64,000 nucleotides of DNA from Actinomycetes bacterium (GTDB lineage: Bacteria > Actinomycetota > Actinomycetes > S36-B12). This document shows positions 8,135 to 29,758 of the stretch, piece after piece (position 1 is the stretch's first letter; every line of letters begins with the position of its first letter). A program made the position numbers and the translations under genes. Under the pieces are notes generated by a model. It was not told the origin of the DNA. It saw only the letters and a program-made list of their open reading frames with translations, and searched no databases. The stretch spans positions 1,426,623 through 1,490,622 of the forward strand of contig OZ257128.1 in NCBI GenBank assembly GCA_965278945.1, read 5' to 3'.

Positions 8135-8143
8135 CACGGGACA

Positions 8144-11400: not shown

Positions 11401-12156
11401 TCAGGCGCGCCTGCCGCCGTCCACGACGATCGCCTGACCTGTGAGATACCTGCTCTCGTCGCTAGCCAGGTGCAACACGATTTGCGCAACGTCATCGGGC
11501 TGCCCGATGCGCTCGAGCATCTGACGATCAATATAGGCAGCGCGACGATCGGGGTCGGCCAGCATCGCTGCGGTAGCTGGGGTCTCGATGATTCCCGGGC
11601 ATACCGCGTTGCAGCGAACGCCGTGCCGGCCATAGTCGAGCGCGACCGAACGCGTGAGGGCGACGACGCCACCCTTCGCGGCCGTGTACGCGGCGAAGCG
11701 TGGTAGCGCGCTGAGCCCGGCCGTCGACGCCGTGTTCACAATCGCGCCACCGCCGCCGGCAATCATGTGCGGCAGCGCGGCCCGGCAGCCCAGAAAAACG
11801 CTGGTCAACGACACCGTCAGTGTTCGCTGCCAGTCCTCGATGGTCGTCTCGACGACTGGAACGTCCTTGGGCGCCCAATAGGCATTGTTGTGGAGTACGT
11901 CCAGCCTTCCAAAGCGCTCAACCGCGGAGTCCATCAGATTCACGACGTCACTCTCGGAGCCGACATCGCAGCGGACGGCGTAGGACTTGCCTCCCGCGGC
12001 GGTCACGAGCTCGGCGGTCCGTTCCACTCCGGACTCGTCGATGTCGGCGACAATCACTGTCGCTCCCTCACGGGCCAGCAGCAGCGCGGTCGCCCGTCCG
12101 ATGCCCGACGCCGATCCCGTGATGACTGCGATCTTGCCCTCAACCCGACCAACCAC
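11401..12156 (-). CDS. short-chain dehydrogenase/reductase (SDR); candidate cis-dihydrodiol dehydrogenase
   Basis: It has the TGSASGIG cofactor motif, NNA, and a YxxxK region (YTAAKGGVVALT). The GTG start follows GAGGAG. It is the last gene of the long minus-strand catabolic run. Confidence 0.85.
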   Translation of the reverse strand: MVGRVEGKIAVITGSASGIGRATALLLAREGATVIVADIDESGVERTAELVTAAGGKSYAVRCDVGSESDVVNLMDSAVERFGRLDVLHNNAYWAPKDVPVVETTIEDWQRTLTVSLTSVFLGCRAALPHMIAGGGGAIVNTASTAGLSALPRFAAYTAAKGGVVALTRSVALDYGRHGVRCNAVCPGIIETPATAAMLADPDRRAAYIDRQMLERIGQPDDVAQIVLHLASDESRYLTGQAIVVDGGRRA

Positions 12157-13103: not shown

Positions 13104-13981
13104 GACGCCGGCGACCATGGGGAGAGCAGGAAGTCCGAGAGCGCCGCGTTGAAGATATCGGGCTCCTCCCACTGCGGCCAGTGTCCGCAGCGTTCCATGA
13201 GGACGAACTCGGCGTTTGGGACCAACGCGGCTGCGCGCCGCGCGGTCTCTGCCGTCGTCGTCGGATTGTCGCTCGTCCACAGGAACAGCGTTGGCTGGAC
13301 GATTCCGGAGAGGACGTCCGGCGTGAGTGGAGCCGCCTGCTGGTTGCTCAAGCGGTTGTTTGCATCGGCAAGGACGCGGGCAGCCTCGTCCTGCTGGTAC
13401 ATCACCCAGCGGATGTCGACCAACTCATCAGTGAGACTGGCGGCGGGGTCAAAGAAGAGCCACTCCATTCTCCGACGGACCGCGTCACGGCTCGGATTGG
13501 CAACGAACTCACCAGTCAGTCGCCGTAACTCGCTGAGCCCGTCCTTCATGTGCTGACGGGACGCGTCGTCCTCCTCAATGCCGAGCCGCGCACCGCATAC
13601 TGATACGAGCTTGGTGACGCGGTCGGGATGGCGAATCGCGGTCCACATCGCAATCCACCCGCCGAGGGACTCGCCAACCAGATAGGCCTGCGTGATTCCG
13701 GCCGCGTCGAGCAGCGCCAGCAGGTGCTCCACGTAGTCGTCCAAGCCGGGAGCGGTCGAAGGGGCGTCGGTGAGACCGAATCCCAGATAGTCGACTGCGA
13801 GTACACGGAAGTCCTTGCTCAACGGTATGACGTTGCGGGCGAACGCCTCGGCGTGCCCGCCCTGACCATGAAGCAGGACAACGGCAGGACCCGAGCCCGC
13901 CTCGATGCACCGCGTACGAATGCCGCCCGCGTCGTAGTAGCGGACCTCCGCTCCCAGCAACTCGACCCAGACGGTGTTCAC
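13100..13981 (-). CDS. meta-cleavage-product (C-C bond) hydrolase, alpha/beta fold, copy 1
   Basis: It has the oxyanion motif LLHGQGG, the nucleophile elbow GESLGG, and a C-terminal CGHWPQWEEPDIFNAALSDFL typical of BphD/MhpC-type hydrolases. The GTG start overlaps the upstream stop (GTGA). Confidence 0.85.
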   Translation of the reverse strand: MNTVWVELLGAEVRYYDAGGIRTRCIEAGSGPAVVLLHGQGGHAEAFARNVIPLSKDFRVLAVDYLGFGLTDAPSTAPGLDDYVEHLLALLDAAGITQAYLVGESLGGWIAMWTAIRHPDRVTKLVSVCGARLGIEEDDASRQHMKDGLSELRRLTGEFVANPSRDAVRRRMEWLFFDPAASLTDELVDIRWVMYQQDEAARVLADANNRLSNQQAAPLTPDVLSGIVQPTLFLWTSDNPTTTAETARRAAALVPNAEFVLMERCGHWPQWEEPDIFNAALSDFLLSPWSPAS

Positions 13982-15318
13982 GACTGCTCCTTGTGATGGT
14001 TTCCGGTCGCCGCCAGAACAGGCTCAGCGTCGTCTCCGGTCGGATGAAATGCGAGGCTGGACCGCGCCGGTACCTGTCGCTCCATAAAGATCTCGCTGCC
14101 TGTGCTCGCGGACTTGAGAATCGCTAGGCACACCTCCAGCGTCGCCATCCCCCAACGCCCGTCATGGAACAACGGGCGATCCTGGACAACGGCTTCGTAC
14201 ATCTCGGTGAGCTCAGCCGTGCGACCAGTCGCGCCCTTCTCGATCGTGATCTCCTCGGCACCCCGTGAGCCGTAGACCATCAGCCCGTGCGGGCTCTGCC
14301 GGACCACGCCTTGCTCGCAGCTGACGAGCGTGTAACCGAAGTACGGCTGATACAGGCTCGGTCCCCCCGTGTAGCCGAACAGCGCCATCGTCTCGCCGTC
14401 GGCGTCCGGTGTTCCGTACCGGCCCTGCTCCTTCTGGGCATCAAGCCGCGCGTCGAGGTCATCGTCATCACGAGAGCTCGCCTTGAGGTCAAGGAAGTTC
14501 TGCCGCATACGAATCGACCTACCGACTGCTCGCTGCTGACCACCTTCTCCAATATGGCCGAACAGTTCACCGCTGTCGAAGAATCCCCTAGCATCGAAAG
14601 CGAGCAACGCGGTCGCGCCATCACGAAACGTCAGGAAGCAGTTGTAGCCAGCCTCGACTCCTCGCAGGTCATCCCAGATGACAGAGGCGCGGACGCTGTG
14701 CACTAGGCCTCCCGCAACCTGACGGACGATGTCGACCTGATGCGGACCCTGATTGAGGACCGGCCCGTGGCTCGAAACCAGTTCCCGGTTTGGCCACGGC
14801 AGGACGTTGAAGTCGTTGTAGTTGAACGTCATGACCGAGACGAGAGCGCCCAGCTCTCCGGACTCGACGAGCTCCTGCAGCCGCAGGATCGGCGGATCAA
14901 AACTGTGCGTATGCCCAGCCATGAGCTTGATGCCGCAGGCATCCGCCACCTCGATCATCTTCTCTGCGTCAGCCAACGTGGAGGCCATTGGCTTTTCGAC
15001 GATCACATGCTTGCCTGCCTGCGCGGCCAGCGTCACGTGCTCAAGTCGCTGTTCCGGGAGTGTGGCGATGTACAGCACATCGACGTCCGGATCTGCACAC
15101 AGCTCAGCGACACTCGTGTAGGCGCGGCCGCCAAATTCCTCCTGGAACATCGTCAAAGCCCCGCGGCGCTCCTCGCGCTCAGCAGCGGCGACCACGCGAT
15201 ACGGCAACTGCGCGAGCTCGGTCTTGCGACGAAGGATGAGGTTCACCGCCTGCCCGAGACCGACAAAGCCGAGACCAAGTTGGCGCTGCGGAACCTCGTT
15301 CATCTCTGTTGTCCTCAC
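13978..15318 (-). CDS. Gfo/Idh/MocA-family NAD(P)-dependent oxidoreductase, copy 1
   Basis: It has an N-terminal Rossmann region (LGFVGLGQA ... VLYIATLPEQRLEHVTLAAQAGKHVIVEKPMA). It is 446 aa long. Dihydrodiol and semialdehyde dehydrogenases such as LigC and phthalate dihydrodiol dehydrogenase belong to this family, but the substrate is not assignable. Confidence 0.85.
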   Translation of the reverse strand: MRTTEMNEVPQRQLGLGFVGLGQAVNLILRRKTELAQLPYRVVAAAEREERRGALTMFQEEFGGRAYTSVAELCADPDVDVLYIATLPEQRLEHVTLAAQAGKHVIVEKPMASTLADAEKMIEVADACGIKLMAGHTHSFDPPILRLQELVESGELGALVSVMTFNYNDFNVLPWPNRELVSSHGPVLNQGPHQVDIVRQVAGGLVHSVRASVIWDDLRGVEAGYNCFLTFRDGATALLAFDARGFFDSGELFGHIGEGGQQRAVGRSIRMRQNFLDLKASSRDDDDLDARLDAQKEQGRYGTPDADGETMALFGYTGGPSLYQPYFGYTLVSCEQGVVRQSPHGLMVYGSRGAEEITIEKGATGRTAELTEMYEAVVQDRPLFHDGRWGMATLEVCLAILKSASTGSEIFMERQVPARSSLAFHPTGDDAEPVLAATGNHHKEQS

Positions 15319-15475
15319 GTGGGGGTGACGGCTTTGCGCACGGGTGAGGCCATCAACTCGCCCCAGTAGCGGTAAAACTCACGTTGGTTCTCCTCGCTGA
15401 GCCCGTCGATGACAGTGCCAGGCCAGTTGGGGCCCTGCTCCATCAGCACCTCCCTGCCTGCGCCGAACTGACACA
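15315..15475 (-). pseudogene. 3' remnant of a Rieske oxygenase alpha-subunit gene (left behind by the duplication)
   Basis: The last 39 codons (GPNWPGTVIDGLSEENQREFYRYWGELMASPVRKAVTPT) are identical to the end of the intact gene at 19050..20414. A 135-bp in-frame deletion follows. After that come about 40 bp of degraded homology with a 2-bp indel, and then homology is lost. Confidence 0.7.
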
Positions 15476-15640: not shown

Positions 15641-16591
15641 TCAACTTTCCCTCGGTGTCCACGATCCGACCGCCATGCCCATGAGTCCGCGATAGAACGG
15701 CTCATATGTAAGGAAGTCGAGGAGGGGCTCGTCACCCAACGCGGCCAGAAGGGCAATCCAAGCCCGCAACTCCACTTGTCCGTGATCGAGTAGATCTGCG
15801 CCGGATAGTTCGCTCAGCCGTTGAGTCTGGCCGCTCGTTAACGTGTCCACGAGACTCTTATCGAAGGCCTCATCGATGTCGCCGTGCCCCATCTGGCCCC
15901 GATAACTCTTCCATGGATAGCCAGCCGTGAAATGGGACCAACCTCCCGAGGCGTAAATGGCCACCCGTTCGCCCGCAGGGCGATTCGCAGCCACGCGGGA
16001 CAACAACTCGCCGAACTGCGCGCATCGCCACGGCTCGACTGAGGGATGGTGAATGGCGTTCATGAACACTAGAACTACCGGAATGTCCGCGCGAGGCGTG
16101 ATGTTAGCTAGTACCTGTGCGTGTGCATGAGACTTTAGTTCATCGCCTTCGAACCGGCCTACCGAGGCGAGGTCGAAACCTTCGAATACGCCTTGCTCAA
16201 GGAGGTCACTCGAAAATTCGCGATGACTTGTGTACTTAGTCGACGTGGCACTCGACCTCGCCAAGGTGAACTCGGTACCCGTGTAAACTGCCAGTTGAGG
16301 GGTGTTCGCGGTACTGAAGTTCTCGTCTTGGTCATCGCCGACGACGACCAAGACGTCCGGAAGCGTGGACGCCAATTTTGCACGTATAGCCTCGAGCGCC
16401 TCTTGAATAGGCGCAAACCTCCTGCGGTTCGCCTCCAGACTCTCACGAAGGACGCCGTCCGGGGCCTTAGGCAGAAACCCATAGCGCTTCTCGAACACAC
16501 GACGGTTCCCGTCACGGTAGTAGTCCCAGTCATCGATCGGCATGAAAGTGAAGGCGTGAGAGGAGGCCAAGCCAGCCACTATCTTCCCCAT
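15641..16591 (-). CDS. class III (LigB-type) extradiol ring-cleavage dioxygenase, paralogue B
   Basis: LigB-family blocks are present (GLASSHAF, VVVGDDQDENF, SHAHAQVL, ASGGWSHF). The ATG follows GGAGGTGA. It lies in the unique spacer between the two duplicated copies. Confidence 0.8.
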   Translation of the reverse strand: MGKIVAGLASSHAFTFMPIDDWDYYRDGNRRVFEKRYGFLPKAPDGVLRESLEANRRRFAPIQEALEAIRAKLASTLPDVLVVVGDDQDENFSTANTPQLAVYTGTEFTLARSSATSTKYTSHREFSSDLLEQGVFEGFDLASVGRFEGDELKSHAHAQVLANITPRADIPVVLVFMNAIHHPSVEPWRCAQFGELLSRVAANRPAGERVAIYASGGWSHFTAGYPWKSYRGQMGHGDIDEAFDKSLVDTLTSGQTQRLSELSGADLLDHGQVELRAWIALLAALGDEPLLDFLTYEPFYRGLMGMAVGSWTPRES

Positions 16592-16722: not shown

Positions 16723-16838
16723 CTTGGGGCCGACGCCAATCGTGGACGCCGGTACGTGATCAAGTGTGGATCGACGGCTGCCTGGCGCGTGATCATTAGT
16801 GCAGCATGCGATGAGGCGAACGCGGCGACGACCGTCAT
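16723..16838 (-). pseudogene. 5' remnant of LigB-type dioxygenase A (duplicate copy, 109-bp deletion, truncated)
   Basis: It encodes MTVVAAFASSHAALMITRQAAVDP and then shifts frame. Compared with copy 1, the 109 bp between two ATCGACGG octamers are missing. Homology ends at 16723. Confidence 0.7.
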
Positions 16839-17716
16839 GACGCCGGCGACCATGGGGAGAGCAGGAAGTCCGAGAGCGCCGCGTTGAAGATATCGGGCTC
16901 CTCCCACTGCGGCCAGTGTCCGCAGCGTTCCATGAGGACGAACTCGGCGTTCGGGACCAACGCGGCTGCGCGCCGCGCGGTCTCTGCCGTCGTCGTCGGA
17001 TTGTCGCTCGTCCACAGGAACAGCGTTGGCTGGACGATTCCGGAGAGGACGTCCGGCGTGAGTGGAGCCGCCTGCTGGTTGCTCAAGCGGTTGTTTGCAT
17101 CGGCAAGGACGCGGGCAGCCTCGTCCTGCTGGTACATCACCCAGCGGATGTCGACCAACTCATCAGTGAGACTGGCGGCGGGGTCAAAGAAGAGCCACTC
17201 CATTCTCCGACGGACCGCGTCACGGCTCGGATTGGCAACGAACTCACCAGTCAGTCGCCGTAACTCGCTGAGCCCGTCCTTCATGTGCTGACGGGACGCG
17301 TCGTCCTCCTCAATGCCGAGCCGCGCACCGCATACTGATACGAGCTTGGTGACGCGGTCGGGATGGCGAATCGCGGTCCACATCGCAATCCACCCGCCGA
17401 GGGACTCGCCAACCAGATAGGCCTGCGTGATTCCGGCCGCGTCGAGCAGCGCCAGCAGGTGCTCCACGTAGTCGTCCAAGCCGGGAGCGGTCGAAGGGGC
17501 GTCGGTGAGACCGAATCCCAGATAGTCGACTGCGAGTACACGGAAGTCCTTGCTCAACGGTATGACGTTGCGGGCGAACGCCTCGGCGTGCCCGCCCTGA
17601 CCATGAAGCAGGACAACGGCAGGACCCGAGCCCGCCTCGATGCACCGCGTACGAATGCCGCCCGCGTCGTAGTAGCGGACCTCCGCTCCCAGCAACTCGA
17701 CCCAGACGGTGTTCAC
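16835..17716 (-). CDS. meta-cleavage-product hydrolase, copy 2 (protein identical to copy 1)
   Basis: The 293-aa translation is identical to that of 13100..13981. There is one synonymous difference (T at 13217 versus C at 16952). Confidence 0.85.
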   Translation of the reverse strand: MNTVWVELLGAEVRYYDAGGIRTRCIEAGSGPAVVLLHGQGGHAEAFARNVIPLSKDFRVLAVDYLGFGLTDAPSTAPGLDDYVEHLLALLDAAGITQAYLVGESLGGWIAMWTAIRHPDRVTKLVSVCGARLGIEEDDASRQHMKDGLSELRRLTGEFVANPSRDAVRRRMEWLFFDPAASLTDELVDIRWVMYQQDEAARVLADANNRLSNQQAAPLTPDVLSGIVQPTLFLWTSDNPTTTAETARRAAALVPNAEFVLMERCGHWPQWEEPDIFNAALSDFLLSPWSPAS

Positions 17717-19053
17717 GACTGCTCCTTGTGATGGTTTCCGGTCGCCGCCAGAACAGGCTCAGCGTCGTCTCCGGTCGGATGAAATGCGAGGCTGGACCGC
17801 GCCGGTACCTGTCGCTCCATAAAGATCTCGCTGCCTGTGCTCGCGGACTTGAGAATCGCTAGGCACACCTCCAGCGTCGCCATCCCCCAACGCCCGTCAT
17901 GGAACAACGGGCGATCCTGGACAACGGCTTCGTACATCTCGGTGAGCTCAGCCGTGCGACCAGTCGCGCCCTTCTCGATCGTGATCTCCTCGGCACCCCG
18001 TGAGCCGTAGACCATCAGCCCGTGCGGGCTCTGCCGGACCACGCCTTGCTCGCAGCTGACGAGCGTGTAACCGAAGTACGGCTGATACAGGCTCGGTCCC
18101 CCCGTGTAGCCGAACAGCGCCATCGTCTCGCCGTCGGCGTCCGGTGTTCCGTACCGGCCCTGCTCCTTCTGGGCATCAAGCCGCGCGTCGAGGTCATCGT
18201 CATCACGAGAGCTCGCCTTGAGGTCAAGGAAGTTCTGCCGCATACGAATCGACCTACCGACTGCTCGCTGCTGACCACCTTCTCCAATATGGCCGAACAG
18301 TTCACCGCTGTCGAAGAATCCCCTAGCATCGAAAGCGAGCAACGCGGTCGCGCCATCACGAAACGTCAGGAAGCAGTTGTAGCCAGCCTCGACTCCTCGC
18401 AGGTCATCCCAGATGACAGAGGCGCGGACGCTGTGCACTAGGCCTCCCGCAACCTGACGGACGATGTCGACCTGATGCGGACCCTGATTGAGGACCGGCC
18501 CGTGGCTCGAAACCAGTTCCCGGTTTGGCCACGGCCTGGCGTTGAAGTCGTTGTAGTTGAACGTCATGACCGAGACGAGAGCGCCCAGCTCTCCGGACTC
18601 GACGAGCTCCTGCAGCCGCAGGATCGGCGGATCAAAACTGTGCGTATGCCCAGCCATGAGCTTGATGCCGCAGGCATCCGCCACCTCGATCATCTTCTCT
18701 GCGTCAGCCAACGTGGAGGCCATTGGCTTTTCGACGATCACATGCTTGCCTGCCTGCGCGGCCAGCGTCACGTGCTCAAGTCGCTGTTCCGGGAGTGTGG
18801 CGATGTACAGCACATCGACGTCCGGATCTGCACACAGCTCAGCGACACTCGTGTAGGCGCGGCCGCCAAATTCCTCCTGGAACATCGTCAAAGCCCCGCG
18901 GCGCTCCTCGCGCTCAGCAGCGGCGACCACGCGATACGGCAACTGCGCGAGCTCGGTCTTGCGACGAAGGATGAGGTTCACCGCCTGCCCGAGACCGACA
19001 AAGCCGAGACCAAGTTGGCGCTGCGGAACCTCGTTCATCTCTGTTGTCCTCAC
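17713..19053 (-). CDS. Gfo/Idh/MocA-family oxidoreductase, copy 2
   Basis: It is identical to copy 1 except NDFNVLPW versus NDFNARPW, caused by three substitutions within 4 nt. The GTG start at 19053 overlaps the alpha-subunit stop (GTGA). An ATG at 19038 preceded by GAGGA is an alternative start. Confidence 0.85.
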   Translation of the reverse strand: MRTTEMNEVPQRQLGLGFVGLGQAVNLILRRKTELAQLPYRVVAAAEREERRGALTMFQEEFGGRAYTSVAELCADPDVDVLYIATLPEQRLEHVTLAAQAGKHVIVEKPMASTLADAEKMIEVADACGIKLMAGHTHSFDPPILRLQELVESGELGALVSVMTFNYNDFNARPWPNRELVSSHGPVLNQGPHQVDIVRQVAGGLVHSVRASVIWDDLRGVEAGYNCFLTFRDGATALLAFDARGFFDSGELFGHIGEGGQQRAVGRSIRMRQNFLDLKASSRDDDDLDARLDAQKEQGRYGTPDADGETMALFGYTGGPSLYQPYFGYTLVSCEQGVVRQSPHGLMVYGSRGAEEITIEKGATGRTAELTEMYEAVVQDRPLFHDGRWGMATLEVCLAILKSASTGSEIFMERQVPARSSLAFHPTGDDAEPVLAATGNHHKEQS

Positions 19054-20414
19054 GTGGGGGTGACGGCTTTGCGCACGGGTGAGGCCATCAACTCGCCCCA
19101 GTAGCGGTAAAACTCACGTTGGTTCTCCTCGCTGAGCCCGTCGATGACAGTGCCAGGCCAGTTGGGGCCTCCCTCGATTCGAGGTTGGTCGAGTCGAGAT
19201 CCATAGTTAAAAGGCCAATGCTTGCCTTCAGTGCTTCGCAGGTTCTGCTGAAGACGCTCAAAGTTCTCGTGGTCATCAGGTGCGAACACGCCCGCTGCTG
19301 ACTGCTGCTCCATCAGCACCTCACACTGCCTACGCCGAACTGACGCGGGAGCATCGCGGTTCACAGCGCACCACTGCCACACCTCGGTCTCGTTAGGCCC
19401 ACGTGGCATCCACATGATTAAGCCCACGCCGTCGAAAGCAGTACCCAGACCGACAATGGAGAAGTTAGGAAAGATGTTGCCGACGTGGAAGCCATACGGC
19501 ACCGGGTCAACGCCCTGCTCAGCCATTTGGCGCGAACGTGTCTCGTGGCGCTTGCGCACCCATTCGACGGCCTCTGGCCCCAACAGTTCCGCCTGCGCCA
19601 GGTCATGCTCGTAGTAGGAGTCACCAACCCGGATCTCAAGGAGACCGTGGGGCGCTCCGTGACCGTGGTTGCAGGCGACCGCAAAGCTCGTGCCCGCTGC
19701 CCTGACGTCACGACCCGGAAGAACTCCCAAACGTGGATCAATCTCGGCAGCCCGGACAGCCAGCACAGATGCGTGAGTGACCGTCACATGAGTCTGGTCG
19801 CCAGCGAAGTTCTCGGCCAGGAGTTTCCAGTTTGCTGGCATGCGGTAGCGCTGCAAGCCTGGCAGTACCTCAAGTCCACCGATGGCGTCGTCTAGCATCA
19901 TCTGCTCGAGATACCACGCGGCCTCGCCGAGGTACTCGGCTAGCCCCGGACCAACCTCGCTCCACGTTGCGAAAATCAGCCCGTGAAACTCCTCCACGCG
20001 AGGCGCACGAACCAGGCCCCACTTTGACTTGTCGAAATCCTCTCCATAGGTGATGTCCTGGAACGGCACAGCCTTTAGCGTGCCGTCGCCCGTGTAGGAC
20101 CACCCGTGATAACTGCACGTGAACGATCGGCCATTGCCGTGGTCGAACAGGCACACACGATTGCCCCTGTGGCGGCACTTATTCAGCAGCACGTTGATCT
20201 GCTCACCTGAACCACGGGTCAAAATGACCGGGTCTTCGCCCATGTACGTCGACACGTAGTCGCCACGGTGCGGAATCATGGACGTGTGGCCGACGAACAG
20301 CCAAGCCTGGCCGAAGACCCTCTCCAACTCGGCCTCGTAAGTTTCGTCTGAGAAGACGTCCTTGCTCAGCAGCCCCGCGTCGGAAGGATTGTGGTGTTCC
20401 ATTCTTGTATTCAT
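19050..20414 (-). CDS. Rieske non-heme iron oxygenase, large (alpha) subunit, paralogue 1 (intact Rieske motif; no adjacent beta gene)
   Basis: It has the Rieske motif CRHRGNRVCLFDHGNGRSFTCSYHGW and the mononuclear-iron motif ENFAGDQTHVTVTH plus APDDHENFE. The ATG at 20414 follows GGAGGC. The ORF-track start at 20471 is less likely. Confidence 0.85.
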   Translation of the reverse strand: MNTRMEHHNPSDAGLLSKDVFSDETYEAELERVFGQAWLFVGHTSMIPHRGDYVSTYMGEDPVILTRGSGEQINVLLNKCRHRGNRVCLFDHGNGRSFTCSYHGWSYTGDGTLKAVPFQDITYGEDFDKSKWGLVRAPRVEEFHGLIFATWSEVGPGLAEYLGEAAWYLEQMMLDDAIGGLEVLPGLQRYRMPANWKLLAENFAGDQTHVTVTHASVLAVRAAEIDPRLGVLPGRDVRAAGTSFAVACNHGHGAPHGLLEIRVGDSYYEHDLAQAELLGPEAVEWVRKRHETRSRQMAEQGVDPVPYGFHVGNIFPNFSIVGLGTAFDGVGLIMWMPRGPNETEVWQWCAVNRDAPASVRRRQCEVLMEQQSAAGVFAPDDHENFERLQQNLRSTEGKHWPFNYGSRLDQPRIEGGPNWPGTVIDGLSEENQREFYRYWGELMASPVRKAVTPT

Positions 20415-20507
20415 ACTGCCTCCGTCCAATAAATCTCCGAGTCGTGACTGACGTTCGCGAACACTGGCCATGGCGGCCGTCCCCGTGAGGGACGGCCGCC
20501 ACCAGCA

Positions 20508-21785
20508 CTACTGACCGATGATCTCGTTCAGGATTTCCGTACCGGGAGCCATCGCCGACTTCACGTAGTCCTCGGTGTTCTGATCGAGATACTCGACGCC
20601 AGGCTGAGGAATGATCTCGGCCGGCACGTTCGGAGTGATCGCAACGTCAGCGCGGGTCGTCGGCTGGTCGAACGACAGCTGCATCGCTGCGGCGCCGCGT
20701 GGGCTCGCCAGCCAGTTCGCGAACACTGCTGCTGCTGCCGGGTGCGGCGACTTATCGAACAACCGCAGGATCCCAAAGCCGCTCGTGAGCACGCCGGGAG
20801 CGTCCGTTGGGAAGACAGGAACCAGCGGGAAACCCTCGGCCCGCAACTGCTGGGTCTGCTTCACATCGAGTCCGAGTCCCACCGGGTACGTACCACGGGC
20901 AACCCAGTCAGCGAGTTGCCGCTGATCGGTTGAGAATGCGACTTCCTGAGTCCCATAGAACTGCTCGGCGAACTCACGGCCCTTGTCGATCGCCATGAAG
21001 ACCGCAGCCGGGCTTCCCGGGCCTGGCCGCCGCGGATCGAACTGCGCAATCTTGCCTGTGAACTCCGGCTTGAGCAGATCGTCCCATGTCTGTATCGAGG
21101 CGGGATCCACAATGTCCGCGTTAACGGTCGGGTACGCGGTGACGTAAAGCAGCACGCGAAGGAGGTACTCAGCGCTGTTGTCCTGCCACTGCAGCGCGCC
21201 GCCCTGCCAACCAGCCGGATCCGTAACGCTCGGCAGCAGCAACTCGGGCTTCAGGGGGCGAAGCAGACCTGCAGGCAGATCGTCAAGCACGCCCGGGTAT
21301 CCGGAGAGGAAGACGTCCAGCGACATCTGACCGGCGGCCGCCTCCTGACGGAGCTTCCCGGTGATCTCGGCCGGCACCGCGTTGGGGAGGTAGTCCACCT
21401 TGATTCCAGTATCTGCCTCGAACTGGCTGCTCAGCATGTCGCGAACCGCGGGGTTCGGGCTAGACGCGATCGCGACGCTGCCTTCCGCCTGACCGGCAGC
21501 CAGGAGAGCGTCCCATTCCGCACCGCCACCATCGGCCCATGTCGCGTACTGAGCGAGGACTTCCTGCTGCTGCTCGGGTGAGAGCTGGACCGCAAGGCCC
21601 TCGCCCTCCGGTGGCGCGCTGCTGCCAGCTGCAGCGCTAGCGGCAGAACTGGGTGCCATGCTGGCCGCCGAAGATGACTCAGAGGAGGAGTTGCTACCGC
21701 ACGCGGCCAGGAGGACCACGGAGGAAATCACCGCCAGTGCACGCGCAGCGGCCCATGGGGACCGTCGGTACGACAGAGCGTTCAT
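20508..21785 (-). CDS. ABC transporter substrate-binding lipoprotein (family-1 solute-binding, Fe3+/polyamine-like fold class)
   Basis: It has a signal peptide with a lipobox (VVLLAAC GS) followed by a Ser/Ala-rich linker. The ATG follows GGAAAGG. Size and composition fit a type II periplasmic binding protein. The ligand is unknown. Confidence 0.8.
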   Translation of the reverse strand: MNALSYRRSPWAAARALAVISSVVLLAACGSNSSSESSSAASMAPSSAASAAAGSSAPPEGEGLAVQLSPEQQQEVLAQYATWADGGGAEWDALLAAGQAEGSVAIASSPNPAVRDMLSSQFEADTGIKVDYLPNAVPAEITGKLRQEAAAGQMSLDVFLSGYPGVLDDLPAGLLRPLKPELLLPSVTDPAGWQGGALQWQDNSAEYLLRVLLYVTAYPTVNADIVDPASIQTWDDLLKPEFTGKIAQFDPRRPGPGSPAAVFMAIDKGREFAEQFYGTQEVAFSTDQRQLADWVARGTYPVGLGLDVKQTQQLRAEGFPLVPVFPTDAPGVLTSGFGILRLFDKSPHPAAAAVFANWLASPRGAAAMQLSFDQPTTRADVAITPNVPAEIIPQPGVEYLDQNTEDYVKSAMAPGTEILNEIIGQ

Positions 21786-21977
21786 GTAGAGCCTTTCCGT
21801 AGGAGGCGACCCCGGTAGCCCGGCGCACCTGAATTTAGAAGGGTCGTGCTTGCAAACACCGCCGAGGCGGTTCGAACGGACGAGGTGGAGGCCCCGCGAT
21901 CAGGTGGCTGATTGGCCCGTCTGCAGACCGGCCCCTCCAGGCCGGCGCAGTTGACGTACGGAGCAATCGGGGGGAAC

Positions 21978-22544
21978 TCAGAAGAAGATCGAGACGGTGC
22001 GAGGTAGGACGGGATGGCCAAGCTCGATGTGCCGGCGGAGTAAGCGGAACCCTTGTGGAGTGCGCCTGATCTGGTCCCACCGCGAGCCCACGAATGTGCT
22101 TTCGTTGCGCTCATGGCGGACCTGGTGGACGAGGAACGTCGATCGCACTCGATACAGATCCTCATCGTCCGGGTCTGGAGTGGCTGTCACATTGCTAACG
22201 AGATGATTCGTGATCGACTCCGGCAGTTCTGCGTGCGCCATCCCCGTATCGAGGCGACGAACCCGCATGTTCAGGGAGTTGTAGTCCTCGTCGAAAACCC
22301 AGAAGCGCAACGGTGCTTCGGCTTCATCGGTGCGCACGCCCCATCGAGCGGCGTCCCGCGCCGCACGGTCCTGAGGAGTTGCTGGCGGAGGGAGGACGCC
22401 CGTGCTCGGCATGACATACCGGATGTTGGGATCTAGGATCCCGAGCCATGCGTCAAAGAGATGGTCATCGAGCAACTGCGCCTCTTCGAATAGGAAGGCT
22501 TGAAGATCCGCAGTCACCTCCGCGTCAATCGTCCCGAGATTCAT
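21978..22544 (-). CDS. Rieske oxygenase small (beta) subunit (SnoaL/NTF2-like)
   Basis: Typical beta-subunit N-terminus (LQAFLFEEAQLLDDHLFDAWLGILDPNIRYVMP) and C-terminus (IRRTPQGFRLLRRHIEL). The ATG overlaps the stop of alpha paralogue 2 (ATGA). Confidence 0.85.
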   Translation of the reverse strand: MNLGTIDAEVTADLQAFLFEEAQLLDDHLFDAWLGILDPNIRYVMPSTGVLPPPATPQDRAARDAARWGVRTDEAEAPLRFWVFDEDYNSLNMRVRRLDTGMAHAELPESITNHLVSNVTATPDPDDEDLYRVRSTFLVHQVRHERNESTFVGSRWDQIRRTPQGFRLLRRHIELGHPVLPRTVSIFF

Positions 22545-23875
22545 ACGTGCCCTCCGTCCTGGCCGCTGTCGGCCATCACCTCGCCCCAGTAGCGGTAAAA
22601 CTCACGTTGAATCATCTCTGTGAAGCGCGGCAGGACGAGGCCCGGCCACGCGGGGTTCTGCCATTCGAGAGGACGAACGTCGACGCCCTCGCCCTGTAGT
22701 CCCATCTCGTAGTTGAACGGCACAAACCTCGCCTGACGGGTCCGTGTGTTCTCCGACAATCGCTCGAAGTTCTCGTGGTCATCAGGAGCGAAGATGCCGG
22801 CGGCAGCCTGCTGATGCGTTATCGAGAAGCACATCTGTTCTTTCAGCACTCTCGGCGCGCCCGCATCTACGAACGAATACTGAGAGACGACCGTTTCGTA
22901 CGGCCCCCTCGGGTGCCATACGAGCAGCCCCACTGCTTCCATGGCAGTGCCGTTTCCGACGATCGACAGCGTCGGGAACACGTTCCCGACATGAAAGCTG
23001 TAGGGCTTGATCGATAGTTCGGGTAGGCGCTCATCAATCGACGCACGTCTCGTACGGACCCAGTCTCCTGCGGCCTGTGACAGCGTTTGCGCGCGGGCGA
23101 GGTCGTGCTCGTAGAACTCCTCGCCGACCCGTACCTCGAGGAAGCCGTGCGGCACTCCGTTGCGGTATCCGGTTGCTACAGAGAGGTTTGCGCCGATGCC
23201 CTTGGCGGGCGAGTTGATCAGACGTGGCTCCACACCCTGTGCGCGCAGACTGAGGACCGACGCGTGCGTGATGGCAACGTGGTAGTCGTCGCCGGCGAAG
23301 TTCTCCGCAAGCAACTTCCAATTTCCCGGCATGGCGTAGCGATGGACATCGGGAACGAGCTCGAGCCCACCGATGTCCTCACGCAACAGGTAGTTGTCGA
23401 GGTACCAAGCGGCATCTCCCAAGTGGTCCAGCAACGTCATGGTGGGGGCGCGCAGGGTTGCGAAGACCAGGCCTCCGAAAACCTCCACGCCGCCTGTCTG
23501 CACAAGGCACGGGGGCAGATCCGCGTTGTCGATGCCACCAAGAAGTCGTCCGGCTGTGTCGTAGCTGCGGCGGTGAGAGGGGCAATCCAGATGAATGGCG
23601 ACGCCCGCGTCGCAACTGACAAATCGACTGCAGGCCGTGGAGCATGCGTTGACGAAAACGCGGAGAATGTCATCTGCTCCGCGCAGCAGGATCACCGGGG
23701 TTTCTCCCATCCAAGTGGTTACATAGTCAAGGGTTCGCGGCACCTGCTGCACGTGACCGACGAAGAGCCAAGATGTGCGGAAGACCGCCTCCATCTCTGA
23801 TTCGTAGACATCGGGGTCGTACACCGAGCAGTCGACAAGCCCGGTGTCGAGCGAAAACCGCTCTGCAACTCGCAT
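22541..23875 (-). CDS. Rieske-oxygenase alpha-subunit paralogue 2 with a degenerate Rieske motif
   Basis: It aligns with paralogue 1 along its whole length. The catalytic motif ENFAGDDYHVAITH and APDDHENFE are conserved. The Rieske segment reads CSTACSRFVSCDAGVAIHLDCPSHRR, with Thr in place of the first His and RR in place of GW. The ATG follows AGGAGGA. Confidence 0.8.
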   Translation of the reverse strand: MRVAERFSLDTGLVDCSVYDPDVYESEMEAVFRTSWLFVGHVQQVPRTLDYVTTWMGETPVILLRGADDILRVFVNACSTACSRFVSCDAGVAIHLDCPSHRRSYDTAGRLLGGIDNADLPPCLVQTGGVEVFGGLVFATLRAPTMTLLDHLGDAAWYLDNYLLREDIGGLELVPDVHRYAMPGNWKLLAENFAGDDYHVAITHASVLSLRAQGVEPRLINSPAKGIGANLSVATGYRNGVPHGFLEVRVGEEFYEHDLARAQTLSQAAGDWVRTRRASIDERLPELSIKPYSFHVGNVFPTLSIVGNGTAMEAVGLLVWHPRGPYETVVSQYSFVDAGAPRVLKEQMCFSITHQQAAAGIFAPDDHENFERLSENTRTRQARFVPFNYEMGLQGEGVDVRPLEWQNPAWPGLVLPRFTEMIQREFYRYWGEVMADSGQDGGHV

Positions 23876-23927: not shown

Positions 23928-25694
23928 CTAGCCTCCGACGAGGCTGTACTTGCGCATCATTCGAAGCGCAAGAAAGGCGACTGCAGATGCGAGCGCTGCC
24001 ATGATGAGTCCGATCACTGCGGCGGACTCATAGTCACCAGCTACTGCGTACTCAAAGAGCAGCACCGACATCGTGCGCGTACCCGGAGTAGCTAGCATCA
24101 CTGTCGCAGCGATGTCTCTCATCGACATCATGAATGTGAAGACAAAGACGGTGGCAACCATGGGGATCACAAGCGGAAGCAGAATTCGTCGAAATACGAC
24201 AGTCGGGCCAGCGCCCGACATGACTGCAGACTCCTCAAGTTCGGGCGAGACCTGCGCCATCGCGCTGCGGAGCATCGCCACGCCCAGAGGGAGTTCCTTG
24301 ATAACAAGCACCACGACCAGCGGCACCAACGTTCCATAGATCAACGCGCCGACGCCCGTGCCGAGGATCAAGCTGCTCCAAGCAAAGCCCAAGAGCAGAC
24401 CCGGCACCGCCCAGGGCAGCCAACACAGCAGGGCCAGCGTGCCTGTGTAAGGCAGTTTCCTGCGCGCAATCACCCAGGCCAGGACTGCATAAAGCATGAT
24501 CCCGAGGATCGACGTGATGGATGCTACAACCAAGGAGTTACGTAACGAGTCGAGCAAGGTGGGATCGGTCAGCGTGGCCTGCCAATGCTCGGTGGTCCAC
24601 GAGCCTCGCGAGAAGAAGCCGAAGCGCCAGCGAACCGAACCGAGCAAGACGATGCTGAGTGGTAGGTAAAGACCCACCGCGAGGGCCGCGAGGATGACGC
24701 CCATCACCACCCGATCAGCCCAGCGTGTGCTTCTGACGCTTGTACGCAGACTCCGCCCGCCAACGGTCGCGACGTTGCTCCAACGCTTGCTCAGGACCTG
24801 ATTGACACCTGCTAACAGCAGGAGAGTGATGAGCATGACTACGCCCAGGGCCATCGCTTCGGAGAACAGAGGCGGGTCGGAACCTATCTGGTCGTAGATG
24901 CGAGTGGCATAGACATCGATGCCAGCCGGGGTCCCAAGGATTCGCTCAACTTCGAACACCTCGAGGCACCGCAGGAAGCCGACTACAGTCGCGGCAAGTA
25001 CCGCAAGCTTGATGAGTGGTAGGGAGATGTGCCTCAGGGTCCGGACGCGTCCTGCGCCTGACATGACCGCAGCTTCTTCCAGGGTGACGTCCATCTGCCG
25101 GAAGGCCGGAGACAGGAAGATGATCATGATCGGGACAGTGGTCAGCGTGAGGTGCACCCAAAGGAGCCCGGAAATCGAGTAGATGTTCAATGTCGGAGCG
25201 CCGGGGATGTTAGCGAGCCACTCGTTGATCAGGCCAGTGTTCGGATCCGCAAGGACGATCCAACCCAGGACCACCGGCACAGTGGGCAAGAAGAACGCAA
25301 GCCAGAGCGAGTACTCCACGAAGCGGGCGATCTTCATCTGCGTACGCGTCAAGAACCATGCGATGACCCCACCGATGATGACGGCGACGGGAACACGCAT
25401 GGCGAGGAGGAATGTGTATCCGAATGATTCGAGGGTCCGCTGTGATTGCGTCGCGTCTTGCCAGGCGTCGAGGCCCGGTTCGAACGGTTGACCAAGTCCC
25501 GCGATATTGAAGGACTGCATGACCATGAACGCGATCGGCGCGATAACGAGGAATGCGACGGCGCCGAGGAGAGCCAGTCCGCCTGCCTTTCGCAGCCTTC
25601 CGTGCAACTTCGCTCGACGGCGTGCGAGAGTCTCTCCAGACTCTCCCGATGTCGTCGCCGGCGGAGCCGGAGGAGGAGCGGTCGTCGTCACCAA
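23928..25694 (-). CDS. ABC transporter permease, fused two-domain type (about 12 TM)
   Basis: At 588 aa it contains two tandem binding-protein-dependent permease modules, each with an EAA-like loop (LEEAAVMSGAGRVRTLRHISLPL and LEESAVMSGAGPTVVFRRILLPL). The start is TTG or GTG after GGAGAGG. Confidence 0.85.
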   Translation of the reverse strand: MVTTTAPPPAPPATTSGESGETLARRRAKLHGRLRKAGGLALLGAVAFLVIAPIAFMVMQSFNIAGLGQPFEPGLDAWQDATQSQRTLESFGYTFLLAMRVPVAVIIGGVIAWFLTRTQMKIARFVEYSLWLAFFLPTVPVVLGWIVLADPNTGLINEWLANIPGAPTLNIYSISGLLWVHLTLTTVPIMIIFLSPAFRQMDVTLEEAAVMSGAGRVRTLRHISLPLIKLAVLAATVVGFLRCLEVFEVERILGTPAGIDVYATRIYDQIGSDPPLFSEAMALGVVMLITLLLLAGVNQVLSKRWSNVATVGGRSLRTSVRSTRWADRVVMGVILAALAVGLYLPLSIVLLGSVRWRFGFFSRGSWTTEHWQATLTDPTLLDSLRNSLVVASITSILGIMLYAVLAWVIARRKLPYTGTLALLCWLPWAVPGLLLGFAWSSLILGTGVGALIYGTLVPLVVVLVIKELPLGVAMLRSAMAQVSPELEESAVMSGAGPTVVFRRILLPLVIPMVATVFVFTFMMSMRDIAATVMLATPGTRTMSVLLFEYAVAGDYESAAVIGLIMAALASAVAFLALRMMRKYSLVGG

Positions 25695-25887: not shown

Positions 25888-27069
25888 CTAACGCGTTCCG
25901 GTGGCAAACTGGCCGGCGTGCGAGGCCAGTTCGTCTGTCTCTAGTGCGGCGAGTGCCTGATCTTCCTTGGGGAAGATCAGCACCTGGTCAGGTACGAAGT
26001 CGACCTTGACTCGGGCTCCCCGCGTGATCCCGTCAAGCGAATGCGACCGAGCTCTTAGAAGGTTTCCTTCGACGTCGACCTGATACTCCATCGCATCACC
26101 GAGAAACTCAGCAACGCGGACGGTTCCGGTCCACGCGGAGTGGTCGGATTCGTCAGTTAGCCTCAATCGGACATGCTGGGGGCGCACCGAAACGGTCACC
26201 AAGGCATCAGCCTTGAAGGAGCCGCTCGCGACTCCTTCAAGGCTGCCCGATGTGGTTGCGACTCCATGGGACTGGCCGACGCCTCGTCCGGTAATAACAC
26301 CCGGCAAGAAATTGCTGCCGCCGATGAAGCTGGCGACAAAGGCGGACGCCGGCCGCTCGTAGATGTCCCGCGGAGGTCCGACCTGCTCGATCACGCCCTT
26401 GTTCATGACGACGATCACATCGGACATCGCCAAAGCCTCGACCTGGTCGTGAGTGACGTAAAGAGTGGTGATGCCAAGGTCCTTCTGAAGCCTCGACAAC
26501 TCGATTCGCATGCTGTCCCGCAATCGAGCGTCGAGGTTCGACAGCGGCTCGTCGAGCAGTAGCAACGGCGGTTCGAGCACCAATGCGCGCGCGAGCGCCA
26601 GGCGCTGCTGCTGGCCTCCCGAGAGTGCTGTTGCAGGACGGTCGGCGAACTGCTCCATCTGCGCGATGGCGAGTACAGCGTCGACCCGCCGGCGTAGTTC
26701 CGTCGGTGACGGTCGCTGCCCTCGAGGCATGATCTTCAGCGGGAATGCTGCGTTTTCGTACACAGTCATGTGTGGCCAGATGCCGTACGACTGGAACATC
26801 ATTCCCAGTCCCCGCTTGTTGGGCGCAATGTTGATCTTCGTCGTCGAGCAGAAGACTGCGCGGCCGCCGACGGTTATCCTGCCGGACTCAGGCAGCTCCA
26901 AGCCAGCGATAGACCTGAGCGTCGTGGTCTTGCCGCACCCGGACGGGCCGAGCAGCGTCACGAACTGGCCAGCCTCGGCCTTGAGCGAGACACCGTTCAC
27001 GGCGAACTGCGTGTCTCCGGCGGCCTGTAGGGCGGGATAGGCCTTCTTCAGAGACTCGACTTGGAGCAC
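25888..27069 (-). CDS. ABC transporter ATP-binding protein (PotA/FbpC/MalK-like, with a C-terminal regulatory/TOBE-like domain)
   Basis: It has Walker A GPSGCGKTT, the signature LSGGQQQRLALARAL, Walker B LLLLDEPLSNLD and the H-loop VTHD. The GTG start follows GGAGG. Confidence 0.9.
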   Translation of the reverse strand: MLQVESLKKAYPALQAAGDTQFAVNGVSLKAEAGQFVTLLGPSGCGKTTTLRSIAGLELPESGRITVGGRAVFCSTTKINIAPNKRGLGMMFQSYGIWPHMTVYENAAFPLKIMPRGQRPSPTELRRRVDAVLAIAQMEQFADRPATALSGGQQQRLALARALVLEPPLLLLDEPLSNLDARLRDSMRIELSRLQKDLGITTLYVTHDQVEALAMSDVIVVMNKGVIEQVGPPRDIYERPASAFVASFIGGSNFLPGVITGRGVGQSHGVATTSGSLEGVASGSFKADALVTVSVRPQHVRLRLTDESDHSAWTGTVRVAEFLGDAMEYQVDVEGNLLRARSHSLDGITRGARVKVDFVPDQVLIFPKEDQALAALETDELASHAGQFATGTR

Positions 27070-27211: not shown

Positions 27212-27535
27212 TCATCCCTGGGTCGGCGGAACGTCGACGACCAATCCGTCGAGTTCCTCGGTCACCACAATCTGGCATGATAGGCGGCTGGTCGCCCGCC
27301 GCTCCTCCACGCCCAGATCGAGCAGATCGTCCTCGGAGTGGTCGGGCTGCCCAACGGACGCAAAGTGATCGTCCCTTACCCATACGTGACAGGTAGCGCA
27401 GGACTTGTTGCCTCCGCACTCTGCAACTATGCCGCGCACGCCGTTCTTCGCGGCCGCGGCCATCACGGACTCCCCGATGGTTGCGTCGATGACACTCTCC
27501 TTGCCATCGGCCTCGACGAAGATCACCTTCGGCAT
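27212..27535 (-). CDS. [2Fe-2S] ferredoxin, adrenodoxin/putidaredoxin type
   Basis: The 107-aa product has the cysteine pattern C-x5-C-x2-C ... C (AECGGNKSCATCHV ... SRLSCQI). Confidence 0.85.
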   Translation of the reverse strand: MPKVIFVEADGKESVIDATIGESVMAAAAKNGVRGIVAECGGNKSCATCHVWVRDDHFASVGQPDHSEDDLLDLGVEERRATSRLSCQIVVTEELDGLVVDVPPTQG

Positions 27536-27674: not shown

Positions 27675-28553
27675 TCATGAGTGCGAATCCACAGCGCTGA
27701 GAACATCCTCCGCCGTGAGTAGCGCTGGATTGCGAGCGACCTCGAGTCGCTGTGCGAGCGCAGCGAGAACGATCTTTCGAACACGCCGACCGTCCCAACC
27801 GGTGCACCGCGATGAGATCTCACCATGCAGGAACTTGTCATCGGCGAGCGGTCGTAGCTCCGGCCACAGAGCAGCCAGTTCGCGGAACGACGCACGGACG
27901 ATGGCGACGATTGTTGCGGTGTCGGGAAGCGCTAGATGCAGAACGAGATCCGCACGCGAGAGAAATGCTTCATCGATTGCGGAGGGGAAGTTGGTCGTCG
28001 CCACGAACAGCACCCCCGGATGGTCCGTCGCGACGGAGTCTAGGCCCGCGAGAAGGGCGTCGGTTGCGCGGTGGACATCGACCGGGTTGGTCTCGAAGGA
28101 CGCTGTGGATCGCCGGACGGCAAGACTCTCGACCTCGTCGATCAGGACCACGGTGTGCGGTCGGCGCGCAGCCAGTTCCGGGATGGTGTCGGTCATCAGG
28201 CGCGTGACCGCTCGCTGGCTGGCCCCGAGCATCTCACTCGGAAATGCATGGGGATCGATCTCGACGTAGGTCGTTGCGCCGAGTGGTGCGAGCTCACGAG
28301 CAGCCGCCTGAGCGAGGCCTCGCGCCAGTGTCGTCTTGCCGGTCCCCGCAGGCCCAGCAAGGACGACCAGCCCGTGGGGCAAGCCGGGCAGGGTCGCCAG
28401 GCGACGACCGTGCCTCATCGTGAGAATCGCTGTCGACAGCAATCGCTCCTTGGTTCCGGGGGGAACGAAGATGTGATCCCACGGGCCGTCGTGATGGCCG
28501 GCCGGCAGCGCGTGCACTGACAGCACGCCATCAGGCATGATGTTGGACGCCAC
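27675..28553 (-). CDS. AAA+ ATPase, Pch2/TRIP13-like (Cap6-like) clade
   Basis: It has Walker A GPAGTGKT and Walker B [10 protein letters not shown]. The blocks [66 protein letters not shown] and [12 protein letters not shown] resemble TRIP13/Pch2 as I remember it. The AAA call is secure. The clade call rests on memory, not on a search. The start (GTG 28553 or ATG 28538) lies 3-18 nt after the bicupin stop. Confidence 0.75.
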   Translation of the reverse strand: [292 protein letters not shown]

Positions 28554-28556
28554 GCG

Positions 28557-29645: not shown

Positions 29646-29758
29646 AATGGTCAGTCCACTAAGAATACACACACCCATTTCGCCGGCGCGGCCGACAGAC
29701 GAGGTACTGATCGACTGTGTGCAGGCAAATGGTAAAATAATCAGTCCAAGGAGGCGAA

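Follow-up and report, generated by a model that had tools for sequence, protein, structure and literature searches.

Two paralogous Rieske oxygenase alpha subunits, one with a degenerate Rieske site, conserved with a single beta subunit in uncultured Actinomycetota

Rieske oxygenases are described in reviews of 2022 and 2025 as symmetric assemblies of the alpha3, alpha3beta3, alpha3alpha3 or alpha3alpha'3 type, with both metal centres, i.e. a Rieske [2Fe-2S] cluster plus mononuclear iron, in every alpha subunit (PMC9939785, PMC12445004). The two centres within one alpha are too distant for electron exchange, and every mononuclear iron receives its electrons from the Rieske cluster of a neighbouring alpha via a conserved Asp (PMC9939785, PMC12445004). 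Just one hetero-oligomer with two different alphas is listed in these reviews, the alpha3alpha'3 enzyme NdmA/NdmB, in which both subunits have functional Rieske clusters and no beta is present; neither review includes a mixed alpha ring (PMC9939785, PMC12445004). In the NdmCDE N7-demethylase of Pseudomonas putida CBB5, NdmC has the non-heme iron and no Rieske cluster of its own, the cluster being provided in trans by NdmD (PMC4408171): NdmC has lost its whole Rieske domain, the cluster is carried by the reductase NdmD, the GST-like protein NdmE is required and there is no beta. In the pyrazon oxygenase of Phenylobacterium immobile E, several alphas (PpoC1-19) rely on a single beta (PpoD), a sharing published without any claim of alpha mixing; PpoC1, which lacks the Rieske consensus and is the only alpha encoded near ppoD, was set aside as inactive by the authors (PMC7907043). 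Here, we analysed a 64-kb stretch of DNA from an Actinomycetes bacterium (assembly GCA_965278945.1, contig OZ257128.1, positions 1,426,623 to 1,490,622), hereafter the window, which encodes two paralogous Rieske oxygenase large subunits, alpha-1 and alpha-2, together with a single small subunit, beta.

This trio shares its fold, domain order, iron ligands, bridging Asp and Ring_hydroxyl_B-type beta with BphA1A2 of RHA1 (1uli), TodC1C2 (3en1) and HcaEF (8k0a), and differs from this biphenyl/toluene/3-phenylpropionate alpha3beta3 group in having two alpha paralogues per beta, an alpha-2 devoid of the first Rieske His and of residues enclosing the cluster, and an adjacent dehydrogenase of the GFO/IDH/MocA type. 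The closest solved relatives of both alphas are all alpha3beta3 enzymes. Unlike NdmC, alpha-2 keeps a degenerate Rieske fold, its proposed electron donor is a paralogous alpha, and the two subfamilies are unrelated; moreover, the reductase of the cluster contains only Pyr_redox_2 and Reductase_C domains, and no GST-like gene was seen among the scanned cluster genes. Neither does the trio correspond to the NdmA/NdmB type, given the degenerate motif of alpha-2 and the presence of a beta. As in the trio, several alphas of P. immobile depend on one beta, but the ppo genes are scattered rather than organised in a conserved operon, and no conserved pairing of a degenerate with a canonical alpha is reported (PMC7907043); PpoC1 is likened here to alpha-2 by description. 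In the literature searched for a two-alpha/one-beta Rieske oxygenase or a Rieske-degenerate alpha, the arrangement is undescribed, the P. immobile and Ndm systems being the only precedents.

Coordinates are given as positions in the window, where the genes of the trio and their neighbours all lie on the minus strand. Alpha-2 (22541-23875, 444 aa), a large subunit whose Rieske site is degenerate and whose catalytic site is intact, is followed by beta (21978-22544, 188 aa), the junction reading cacgtATGAatc with a 4-nt ATGA overlap. A gene for an ABC solute-binding protein (SBP, 20508-21785; Pfam SBP_bac_11, SBP_bac_8 and SBP_bac_1) lies between beta and alpha-1 (19050-20414, 454 aa), the canonical large subunit, whose stop overlaps the GTG start of a GFO/IDH/MocA oxidoreductase gene (17713-19053; Pfam GFO_IDH_MocA; junction cccacGTGAgg). 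An initial annotation of the window had described the same layout, with alpha-2 and beta joined by the ATGA overlap, and alpha-1 placed between a binding-protein gene and a GTGA-overlapping oxidoreductase; coordinates and junction sequences agree with it. It had also stated that alpha-1 lacks a beta of its own, and indeed the oxidoreductase follows alpha-1, while beta, used as tblastn query on all 64 kb, matched itself only (next matches at E > 0.3). The alpha-1 start codon (ATG at 20414) is preceded by GGAGG and the database copy of the protein (P0013) likewise has 454 aa, the ATG of an alternative open reading frame (ORF) start at 20471 being located at the foot of a hairpin.

Both alphas contain Rieske and Ring_hydroxyl_A domains (Pfam; 56 and 73 bits in alpha-1, 28.6 and 49.9 bits in alpha-2), with Ring_hydroxyl_A above the cut-off in each, and beta contains Ring_hydroxyl_B (115 bits, 2.8e-33). 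The alphas can be aligned over their full length (46% identity across 439 residues, E = 5e-133) and both end in QREFYRYWGE, in line with the common C-terminal FYRYWGE pointed out earlier. The assignment of alpha-1 to the alpha3beta3-type lineage was likewise recovered, its best PDB matches being alpha3beta3 enzymes; the top match of both alphas is BphA1 of RHA1 (1uli; 279 bits for alpha-1, 186 bits for alpha-2). HcaE and HcaF (NCBIfam NF042946 and NF042947) are the best-matching models, of which the proteins are not members (295.6 for alpha-1 and 201.3 for alpha-2 against a cut-off of 830; 119.9 bits for beta against a cut-off of 230 for the HcaF equivalog). The Rieske motif of alpha-1 is complete (C80-R-H82 ... 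C100-S-Y-H103) and follows the pattern C-x-H-x(15-17)-C-x-x-H. Catalytic sites are present in both alphas, with bridging D206 and iron ligands H209, H214 and D381 in alpha-1, and bridging D196 and iron ligands H199, H204 and D366 in alpha-2, at positions that are invariant in 148-149 of 149 aligned sequences. An AlphaFold2 model of alpha-2 (pLDDT 91.9) superposes on the alpha chains of BPDO, TDO and HcaE; being that of a monomer, it carries no information on metal content or partners. The trio proteins are clear members of the Rieske oxygenase superfamily, yet alpha-2 does not match the Rieske pattern, and alpha-1, contrary to alpha-2, is not directly followed by a beta gene, the GFO oxidoreductase taking this place in the window and in all related loci.

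Two local features of the alphas were also observed. In the alpha-1 clade, the stretch from the bridging Asp to the first iron His is D-Q-T/S-H (intervening residues 207-208, 19791-19796), whereas alpha-2 and 98% of the family have a Tyr just before this His (D-x-Y-H), so that the electron-entry side is clade-specific in alpha-1 and canonical in alpha-2. In addition, the 3' ends of the two genes (19083-19121 and 22571-22609) have 38 of 39 nt in common, with an exact run of 30 nt, for genes that are 52% identical overall. L005 has synonymous differences at this tract, and QREFYRYW, the alpha-1 reading, is found in the window alpha-2 in place of the QRDFYRYW of nearly all other alpha-2 orthologues; this looks like a short gene-conversion tract specific to the genome of the window.

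Beyond the window, eight related loci were retrieved (L001/L008, L002, L003/L004, L005, L006, L007, L009, and L010 with L012), all of them metagenomic; the whole family comes from metagenomes or from metagenome-assembled genomes (MAGs) of uncultured Actinomycetota, and all taxonomically labelled loci belong to the latter. The family is rare, with about ten clusters at 90% identity among the top-scoring candidates from 5.8 billion sequences. Alpha-2 orthologues (P0001-P0008) are 61-89% identical and the next matches 46% or less, while alpha-1 orthologues form seven clusters besides its own (P0013), with identities of 69-78% and next matches of 54% or less. For beta, 12 orthologous clusters were found, and those of their contigs that are long enough to tell also hold alpha-2 orthologues. 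Every related locus with enough sequence contains alpha-2 with an overlapping beta, as well as SBP, alpha-1 and the GFO oxidoreductase in succession, and all alpha-1 orthologues on contigs that can be judged have alpha-2 and beta nearby, none having beta directly downstream. The alpha/alpha/beta pattern, for which a survey of homologous clusters had been suggested at the outset, thus recurs in eight further loci. It had been considered that such clusters might encode a second beta elsewhere; no second beta of the trio type occurs within 10 kb in the related loci, where the only other candidate is an unrelated, self-contained alpha-beta pair in L003.

Two gene orders were found, i.e. permease, alpha-2, beta, SBP, alpha-1, GFO in the window, L001, L005, L006 and L009, and SBP, alpha-1, GFO, permease, alpha-2, beta in L002, L003 and L007, the short contig L010 showing the permease-alpha-2-beta section of the second. 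The set therefore survives rearrangement and, since it is conserved in eight other loci in spite of it, the alpha-1/alpha-2/beta trio is a real functional unit. As a control, 20 loci of non-orthologous relatives, mostly from Mycolicibacterium, were inspected, and each of their alphas is directly followed by its own beta, indicating that a canonical alpha devoid of a beta gene is a derived state, peculiar to the alpha-1 clade and conserved in it.

The initial annotation had called the Rieske motif of alpha-2 defective, and the defect is ancient, extends to the entire clade and is specific to it. The degenerate motif (23573-23644) reads C78-S-T80 ... C98-P-S-H101, with Thr in place of the first His and Arg in place of the Trp following the second motif, and does not match the pattern C-x-H-x(15-17)-C-x-x-H. 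Of 149 aligned members, the 138 that fall outside the alpha-2 clade all have the first Rieske His, and the 11 inside it all lack it, with Thr (8), Ala (1), Ser (1) or Asp (1) instead; the Trp after C-x-x-H is missing from the same 11 sequences. C78, C98 and H101 are invariant in the alpha-2 clade, both Cys and the second His being invariant across the whole alignment, and the Pfam Rieske score of alpha-2 (28.6 bits) exceeds the cut-off of 20.3, which indicates that the fold is kept. Conservation of at least 85% in other members defines 130 positions, 116 of which are kept by alpha-1, with three private changes, and 94 by alpha-2. The losses specific to alpha-2 include H80, R81, C86, F96, Y100 and W103 in two cluster-binding loops. 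The third loop (family motif VP...Y), which we take to be the "Pro loop" covering the cluster in Rieske proteins, has a deletion of 7 residues and has lost VP and the Tyr. In the catalytic domain, the family-conserved E329, W331 and W333 are lost from a strand whose motif E-V-W-x-W (22877-22891) is kept in alpha-1 and reads V-V-S-Q-Y in the window alpha-2 and A/S/V-V-T/S-x-Y/L/I in its clade.

As judged from the alignment, the change in alpha-2 is thus a remodelling of the whole cluster pocket that goes beyond a single ligand swap, and given this remodelling alpha-2 very probably binds no canonical [2Fe-2S] cluster. All members of the alpha-2 clade have Cys123 (23507-23509) at a position that is Gly in 88% of the family; it lies in a shortened Rieske-domain loop that otherwise varies, and could be a replacement metal ligand. 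A shifted His ligand was rejected, as nearby candidates such as C82 in the window and H82 in P0001 lack conservation within the clade. Searching 1.84 billion representative proteins for other degenerate alphas yielded three full-length members (P0181, P0246 and P0272) that have lost the first His and kept C...C-x-x-H, and whose identity to alpha-2 is 26-32%; in P0181 and P0246, Arg replaces the first iron-binding His as well, and no beta gene was found near them on the short contigs looked up (L032 and L033). Degenerate alphas may hence be a recurrent phenomenon.

Selective constraint was compared between the two alphas in matched pairwise comparisons of six genomes. Mean identities of the catalytic domain are the same (75% in alpha-1, 75% in alpha-2), while those of the Rieske domain (77% versus 49%) and of the cluster loops (90% versus 49%) differ. 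Ratios of non-synonymous to synonymous substitution rates (dN/dS) were estimated with the Nei-Gojobori method between the window and L005, its 89%-identical relative; as dS is near saturation, they are approximate. For the Rieske domain, dN is 0.185 in alpha-2 (dN/dS 0.15) and 0.052 in alpha-1 (dN/dS 0.044), for the catalytic domain 0.035 in alpha-2 (dN/dS 0.068) and 0.064 in alpha-1 (dN/dS 0.048), and for the cluster loops 0.153 in alpha-2 and 0.013 in alpha-1; the ratio for the whole alpha-2 is 0.107. Helix 179-208 of alpha-2, which bears the bridging Asp and both iron His, is almost wholly invariant among its orthologues. The alpha-2 Rieske domain is therefore relaxed without being neutral, and constraint on the catalytic domain is equally strong in the two alphas. 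We infer from these sequence patterns that alpha-2 is a selected, catalytically intact subunit that would lack the canonical electron-entry cluster.

A neighbour-joining tree (100 bootstrap replicates) supports the alpha-1 and alpha-2 clades at 100% each and places them as sisters in 88 of 100 replicates, the stem of alpha-2 (0.307) being about twofold that of alpha-1 (0.162). Six derived residues are common to both clades and absent elsewhere in the family, two of which adjoin iron ligands. They include a Phe to Val change right after the first iron His and a Val to Phe change four positions before the Asp ligand, the latter presumably aligning with the active-site Trp358 of NDO. These shared residues indicate that the duplication postdates the specialisation of the ancestral enzyme and that the two pockets are still related. 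Altogether, the gene anatomy and the evolutionary pattern of the trio are well supported.

The most likely mechanism, to which we assign a probability of about 0.45, is a mixed oxygenase of alpha-1, alpha-2 and beta with alpha-1 as the source of the Rieske clusters. An ancestral alpha gene would have duplicated; alpha-1 would have remained a canonical large subunit, with its Rieske [2Fe-2S] cluster and mononuclear iron, in a lineage that kept no beta gene for it, and alpha-2 would have retained the beta gene and the conserved catalytic centre and lost the canonical Rieske cluster. Alpha-1, alpha-2 and beta would then be three subunits of one oxygenase system, assembled as a mixed (alpha-1/alpha-2)3 beta3 particle whose beta is probably shared by both alphas. 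Electrons would pass from the reductase to the Fer2 ferredoxin, on to the Rieske cluster of alpha-1 and from there to the iron of an adjacent alpha-1 or alpha-2, the iron of alpha-2 being fed only when alpha-2 neighbours alpha-1. Since alpha-2 keeps the receiving end of inter-subunit electron transfer and very probably not the sending end, the simplest electron source for it is the Rieske cluster of alpha-1. No free-standing Rieske protein occurs in the conserved gene set, whose ferredoxin belongs to the Fer2 type; an alpha-only Rieske oxygenase resembling LigXa is encoded about 13 kb away (37135-38421) and was not seen in the related loci. Paralogues of a homomeric protein are initially able to co-assemble. 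A mixed ring fits the strict joint inheritance of the three genes, the sister placement of both clades, the lack of a beta gene for alpha-1 and the NdmC/NdmD precedent. We more tentatively propose that no Rieske oxygenase before this one would have had a mixed alpha ring, in which alpha-1 would contribute the [2Fe-2S] clusters and a Rieske-dead but catalytically intact alpha-2 would depend on it, on a shared beta3 base; in a variant of this scheme, the Rieske fold of alpha-2 might have been turned into a Cys3His site (C78, C98, H101 and C123) binding a structural or redox metal.

Several points weigh against a mixed ring. A trimer cannot alternate two subunit types, so that at least one catalytic site would be left beside a dead Rieske domain of alpha-2, a cost absent from the initial proposal. 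The 1:1 translational coupling of alpha-2 and beta, taken by itself, would favour an alpha-2(3)beta(3) enzyme. The loss of E329, W331 and W333, if these face the Rieske domain of the neighbour, would better fit alpha-2/alpha-2 contacts, and the invariance of C78, C98 and H101 together with the clade-specific C123 would leave room for a rewired metal site. Rate covariation among alpha-1, alpha-2, beta and four neighbour proteins gave no signal over six genomes, a sample of little power, with residual correlations of 0.12 for alpha-1/alpha-2, 0.29 for alpha-1/beta and -0.33 for alpha-2/beta. Besides, the count of a single beta applies to the window and the flanks of the loci, and a second one may lie elsewhere in the genomes. 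The initial proposal that the alphas share the beta or co-assemble with clusters supplied by alpha-1 is accordingly only partly supported: its direction was right and the mechanism is unproven.

The best-surviving alternative is that two separate hexamers draw on one beta: alpha-1(3)beta(3), which would be canonical, and alpha-2(3)beta(3), which would have a rewired metal centre in its Rieske domain. This centre, [2Fe-2S] or mononuclear, would be held by C78, C98, H101 and a new ligand such as C123 and would still be reduced by the ferredoxin, so that each of the two enzymes would serve a substrate or step of its own. Such sharing is known in P. immobile E, in which 19 alphas go with one PpoD, whose absence leaves PpoC11 inactive (PMC7907043). 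In alpha-2, three of the four ligand residues have stayed invariant within loops of only 49% identity; with 7 of 33 loop positions invariant, we estimate the chance that all three ligands fall among them at about 0.006. The invariant C123, set against the Gly found in 88% of the family, the purifying selection on the alpha-2 Rieske domain (dN/dS 0.15) and the translational coupling of alpha-2 with beta point in the same direction. However, it is not only the His that has gone, as all three cluster-enclosing loops are without the family residues (R81, C86, F96, Y100, W103 and the third loop), and the position of the lost His holds no consistent ligand (Thr, Ala, Ser or Asp). The constant joint inheritance of alpha-1 and alpha-2 would also be left unexplained, and we regard two separate hexamers as unlikely.

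An unlikelier possibility is that alpha-2/beta no longer depends on electrons, alpha-2 serving either as a structural or scaffolding pseudo-subunit, to hold beta and to stabilise or regulate alpha-1, or as an enzyme whose iron site would act on a substrate in no need of external electrons. The degeneracy of the Rieske site is compatible with it, and so is the existence of distant members with a degenerate motif (P0181, P0246 and P0272). In P. immobile, the Rieske-motif-less PpoC1, judged inactive, is encoded 1.5 kb from the only beta gene and is not among the three alphas reported as undetectable in the proteome (PMC7907043). A mere scaffold, though, would not need the invariant features that alpha-2 displays, i.e. 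the 2-His-1-carboxylate triad, the bridging Asp and the iron-binding helix; its catalytic domain matches that of alpha-1 in constraint (75% identity each, dN/dS 0.068), and alpha-2 also has derived active-site residues in common with alpha-1.

It is less probable still that alpha-1 is a beta-independent alpha3 enzyme, functionally unrelated to alpha-2/beta and linked to them only by a shared pathway. Alpha-1 never adjoins beta, is coupled to the GFO oxidoreductase instead and is separated from the upstream genes by a strong hairpin, but every sampled relative in its group has its own beta and the closest solved relatives are all alpha3beta3. As it keeps 116 of the 130 family positions, with three private changes, no surface of alpha-1 shows relaxation. 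An alpha of this type from P. immobile is inactive without its beta (PMC7907043), and a beta-independent alpha-1 would leave alpha-2 with no electron source. Finally, despite the defective motif and a recent 2.4-kb duplication in the window, a decaying alpha-2 pseudogene or an assembly artefact can be dismissed, since the alpha-2 ORF is intact in at least nine independent assemblies down to 61% identity, the degenerate motif is common to the whole clade, the constraint on its domains and the overall dN/dS (0.107) are those of a selected gene, and the duplication leaves alpha-2 untouched.

A naturally conserved pairing of a complete alpha with a cluster-less yet catalytically constrained one would break the symmetry rule for Rieske oxygenases and provide a natural system separating the electron-donating from the catalytic role of alpha, hitherto approached only through mutagenesis and the unusual NdmCDE complex. 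It would also call for caution before Rieske-defective alphas are discarded as dead genes, as was done with PpoC1 (PMC7907043). A mixed ring would moreover illustrate how complexity can be gained via complementary degeneration after duplication of a homomeric ring subunit. Because the family is entirely uncultured or metagenomic, the idea is testable by heterologous expression only.

Regarding its genomic context, the trio sits in an ABC-transporter-linked catabolic cluster of the hca/mhp type, probably devoted to an aromatic acid. The likeness to the hca/mhp route, which handles phenylpropionate-like acids, rests on HcaE and HcaF as best-matching models, two LigB-type extradiol dioxygenases, one of them MhpB-like, a meta-cleavage-product hydrolase, a short-chain dehydrogenase/reductase (SDR) and a hydratase/aldehyde dehydrogenase/aldolase module. 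Upstream of alpha-2 are encoded a fused permease (23928-25694; Pfam BPD_transp_1) and an ATPase (25888-27069; Pfam ABC_tran and TOBE_2) of the ABC transporter, and such a dedicated importer suggests a charged aromatic substrate. A [2Fe-2S] ferredoxin of the plant/adrenodoxin (Fer2) type, not of the Rieske type (27212-27535; Pfam Fer2, 40 bits; NCBIfam fdx_isc-like), is conserved in L005 and is likely the electron carrier. The ferredoxin-NAD+ reductase (Pfam Pyr_redox_2 and Reductase_C; NCBIfam AndAa- and HcaD-like matches) is encoded on the plus strand at 29759-31006. Downstream of alpha-1, the GFO/IDH/MocA oxidoreductase is probably the dihydrodiol dehydrogenase. It is followed by an alpha/beta-fold hydrolase of the meta-cleavage-product hydrolase type (16835-17716; Pfam Abhydrolase_1; NCBIfam HsaD-, BphD- and PcaD-like matches, all below the cut-offs) and by a LigB-type extradiol dioxygenase of 316 aa (15641-16591; Pfam LigB). 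The MhpB-like LigB dioxygenase (12213-13280), the SDR gene (11401-12156) and the hydratase/aldehyde dehydrogenase/aldolase module (42584-45329) are located farther away. Another conserved pair, comprising a bicupin (distantly gentisate/5-aminosalicylate dioxygenase-like) and a small AAA ATPase, was found in every related locus with enough flank (27675-29678 in the window, 17760-19717 in L002, 14017-15983 in L003 and 4228-6198 in L005).

Directly past the SBP stop and upstream of alpha-1 lies a GC-rich perfect hairpin (20472-20500, minus strand; -38 kcal/mol, z = -5.1) with no T-tract downstream. A hairpin of differing sequence occurs at the same SBP/alpha-1 position in all six other loci examined (L001, L002, L003, L005, L006 and L009); it may serve as an mRNA stabiliser or as a partial terminator setting SBP expression relative to the downstream genes.

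The window also contains a direct duplication of 2,402 bp (13033-15434 and 16768-19169; 99.8% identical, period 3,735 bp), within which lies a third, truncated alpha-1 copy absent from the initial annotation. Duplicated are the genes of the hydrolase and of the GFO oxidoreductase along with the final 42 codons of alpha-1, and the two copies flank the 316-aa LigB gene. In the second copy, these correspond to 13100-13981 (hydrolase, after which comes the MhpB-like LigB gene), 13978-15318 (oxidoreductase) and, at its upstream edge, 15318-15443 (alpha-1 remnant; 95% identity to alpha-1 residues 413-454 by tblastn), all on the minus strand. L005 has a single copy of this stretch, so the duplication is recent. 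A JGI contig of exactly 3,735 bp, which holds an alpha-1 fragment of 397 aa (P0143), may be the repeat of the window collapsed in assembly. An IS481-like transposase gene (8104-8988) and an integrase-core (rve) gene (38575-39825), the latter next to the LigXa-like alpha (37135-38421), were detected in the window, and the permease gene of L001 is split by an ISL3 transposase, indicating that mobile elements are active near these clusters.

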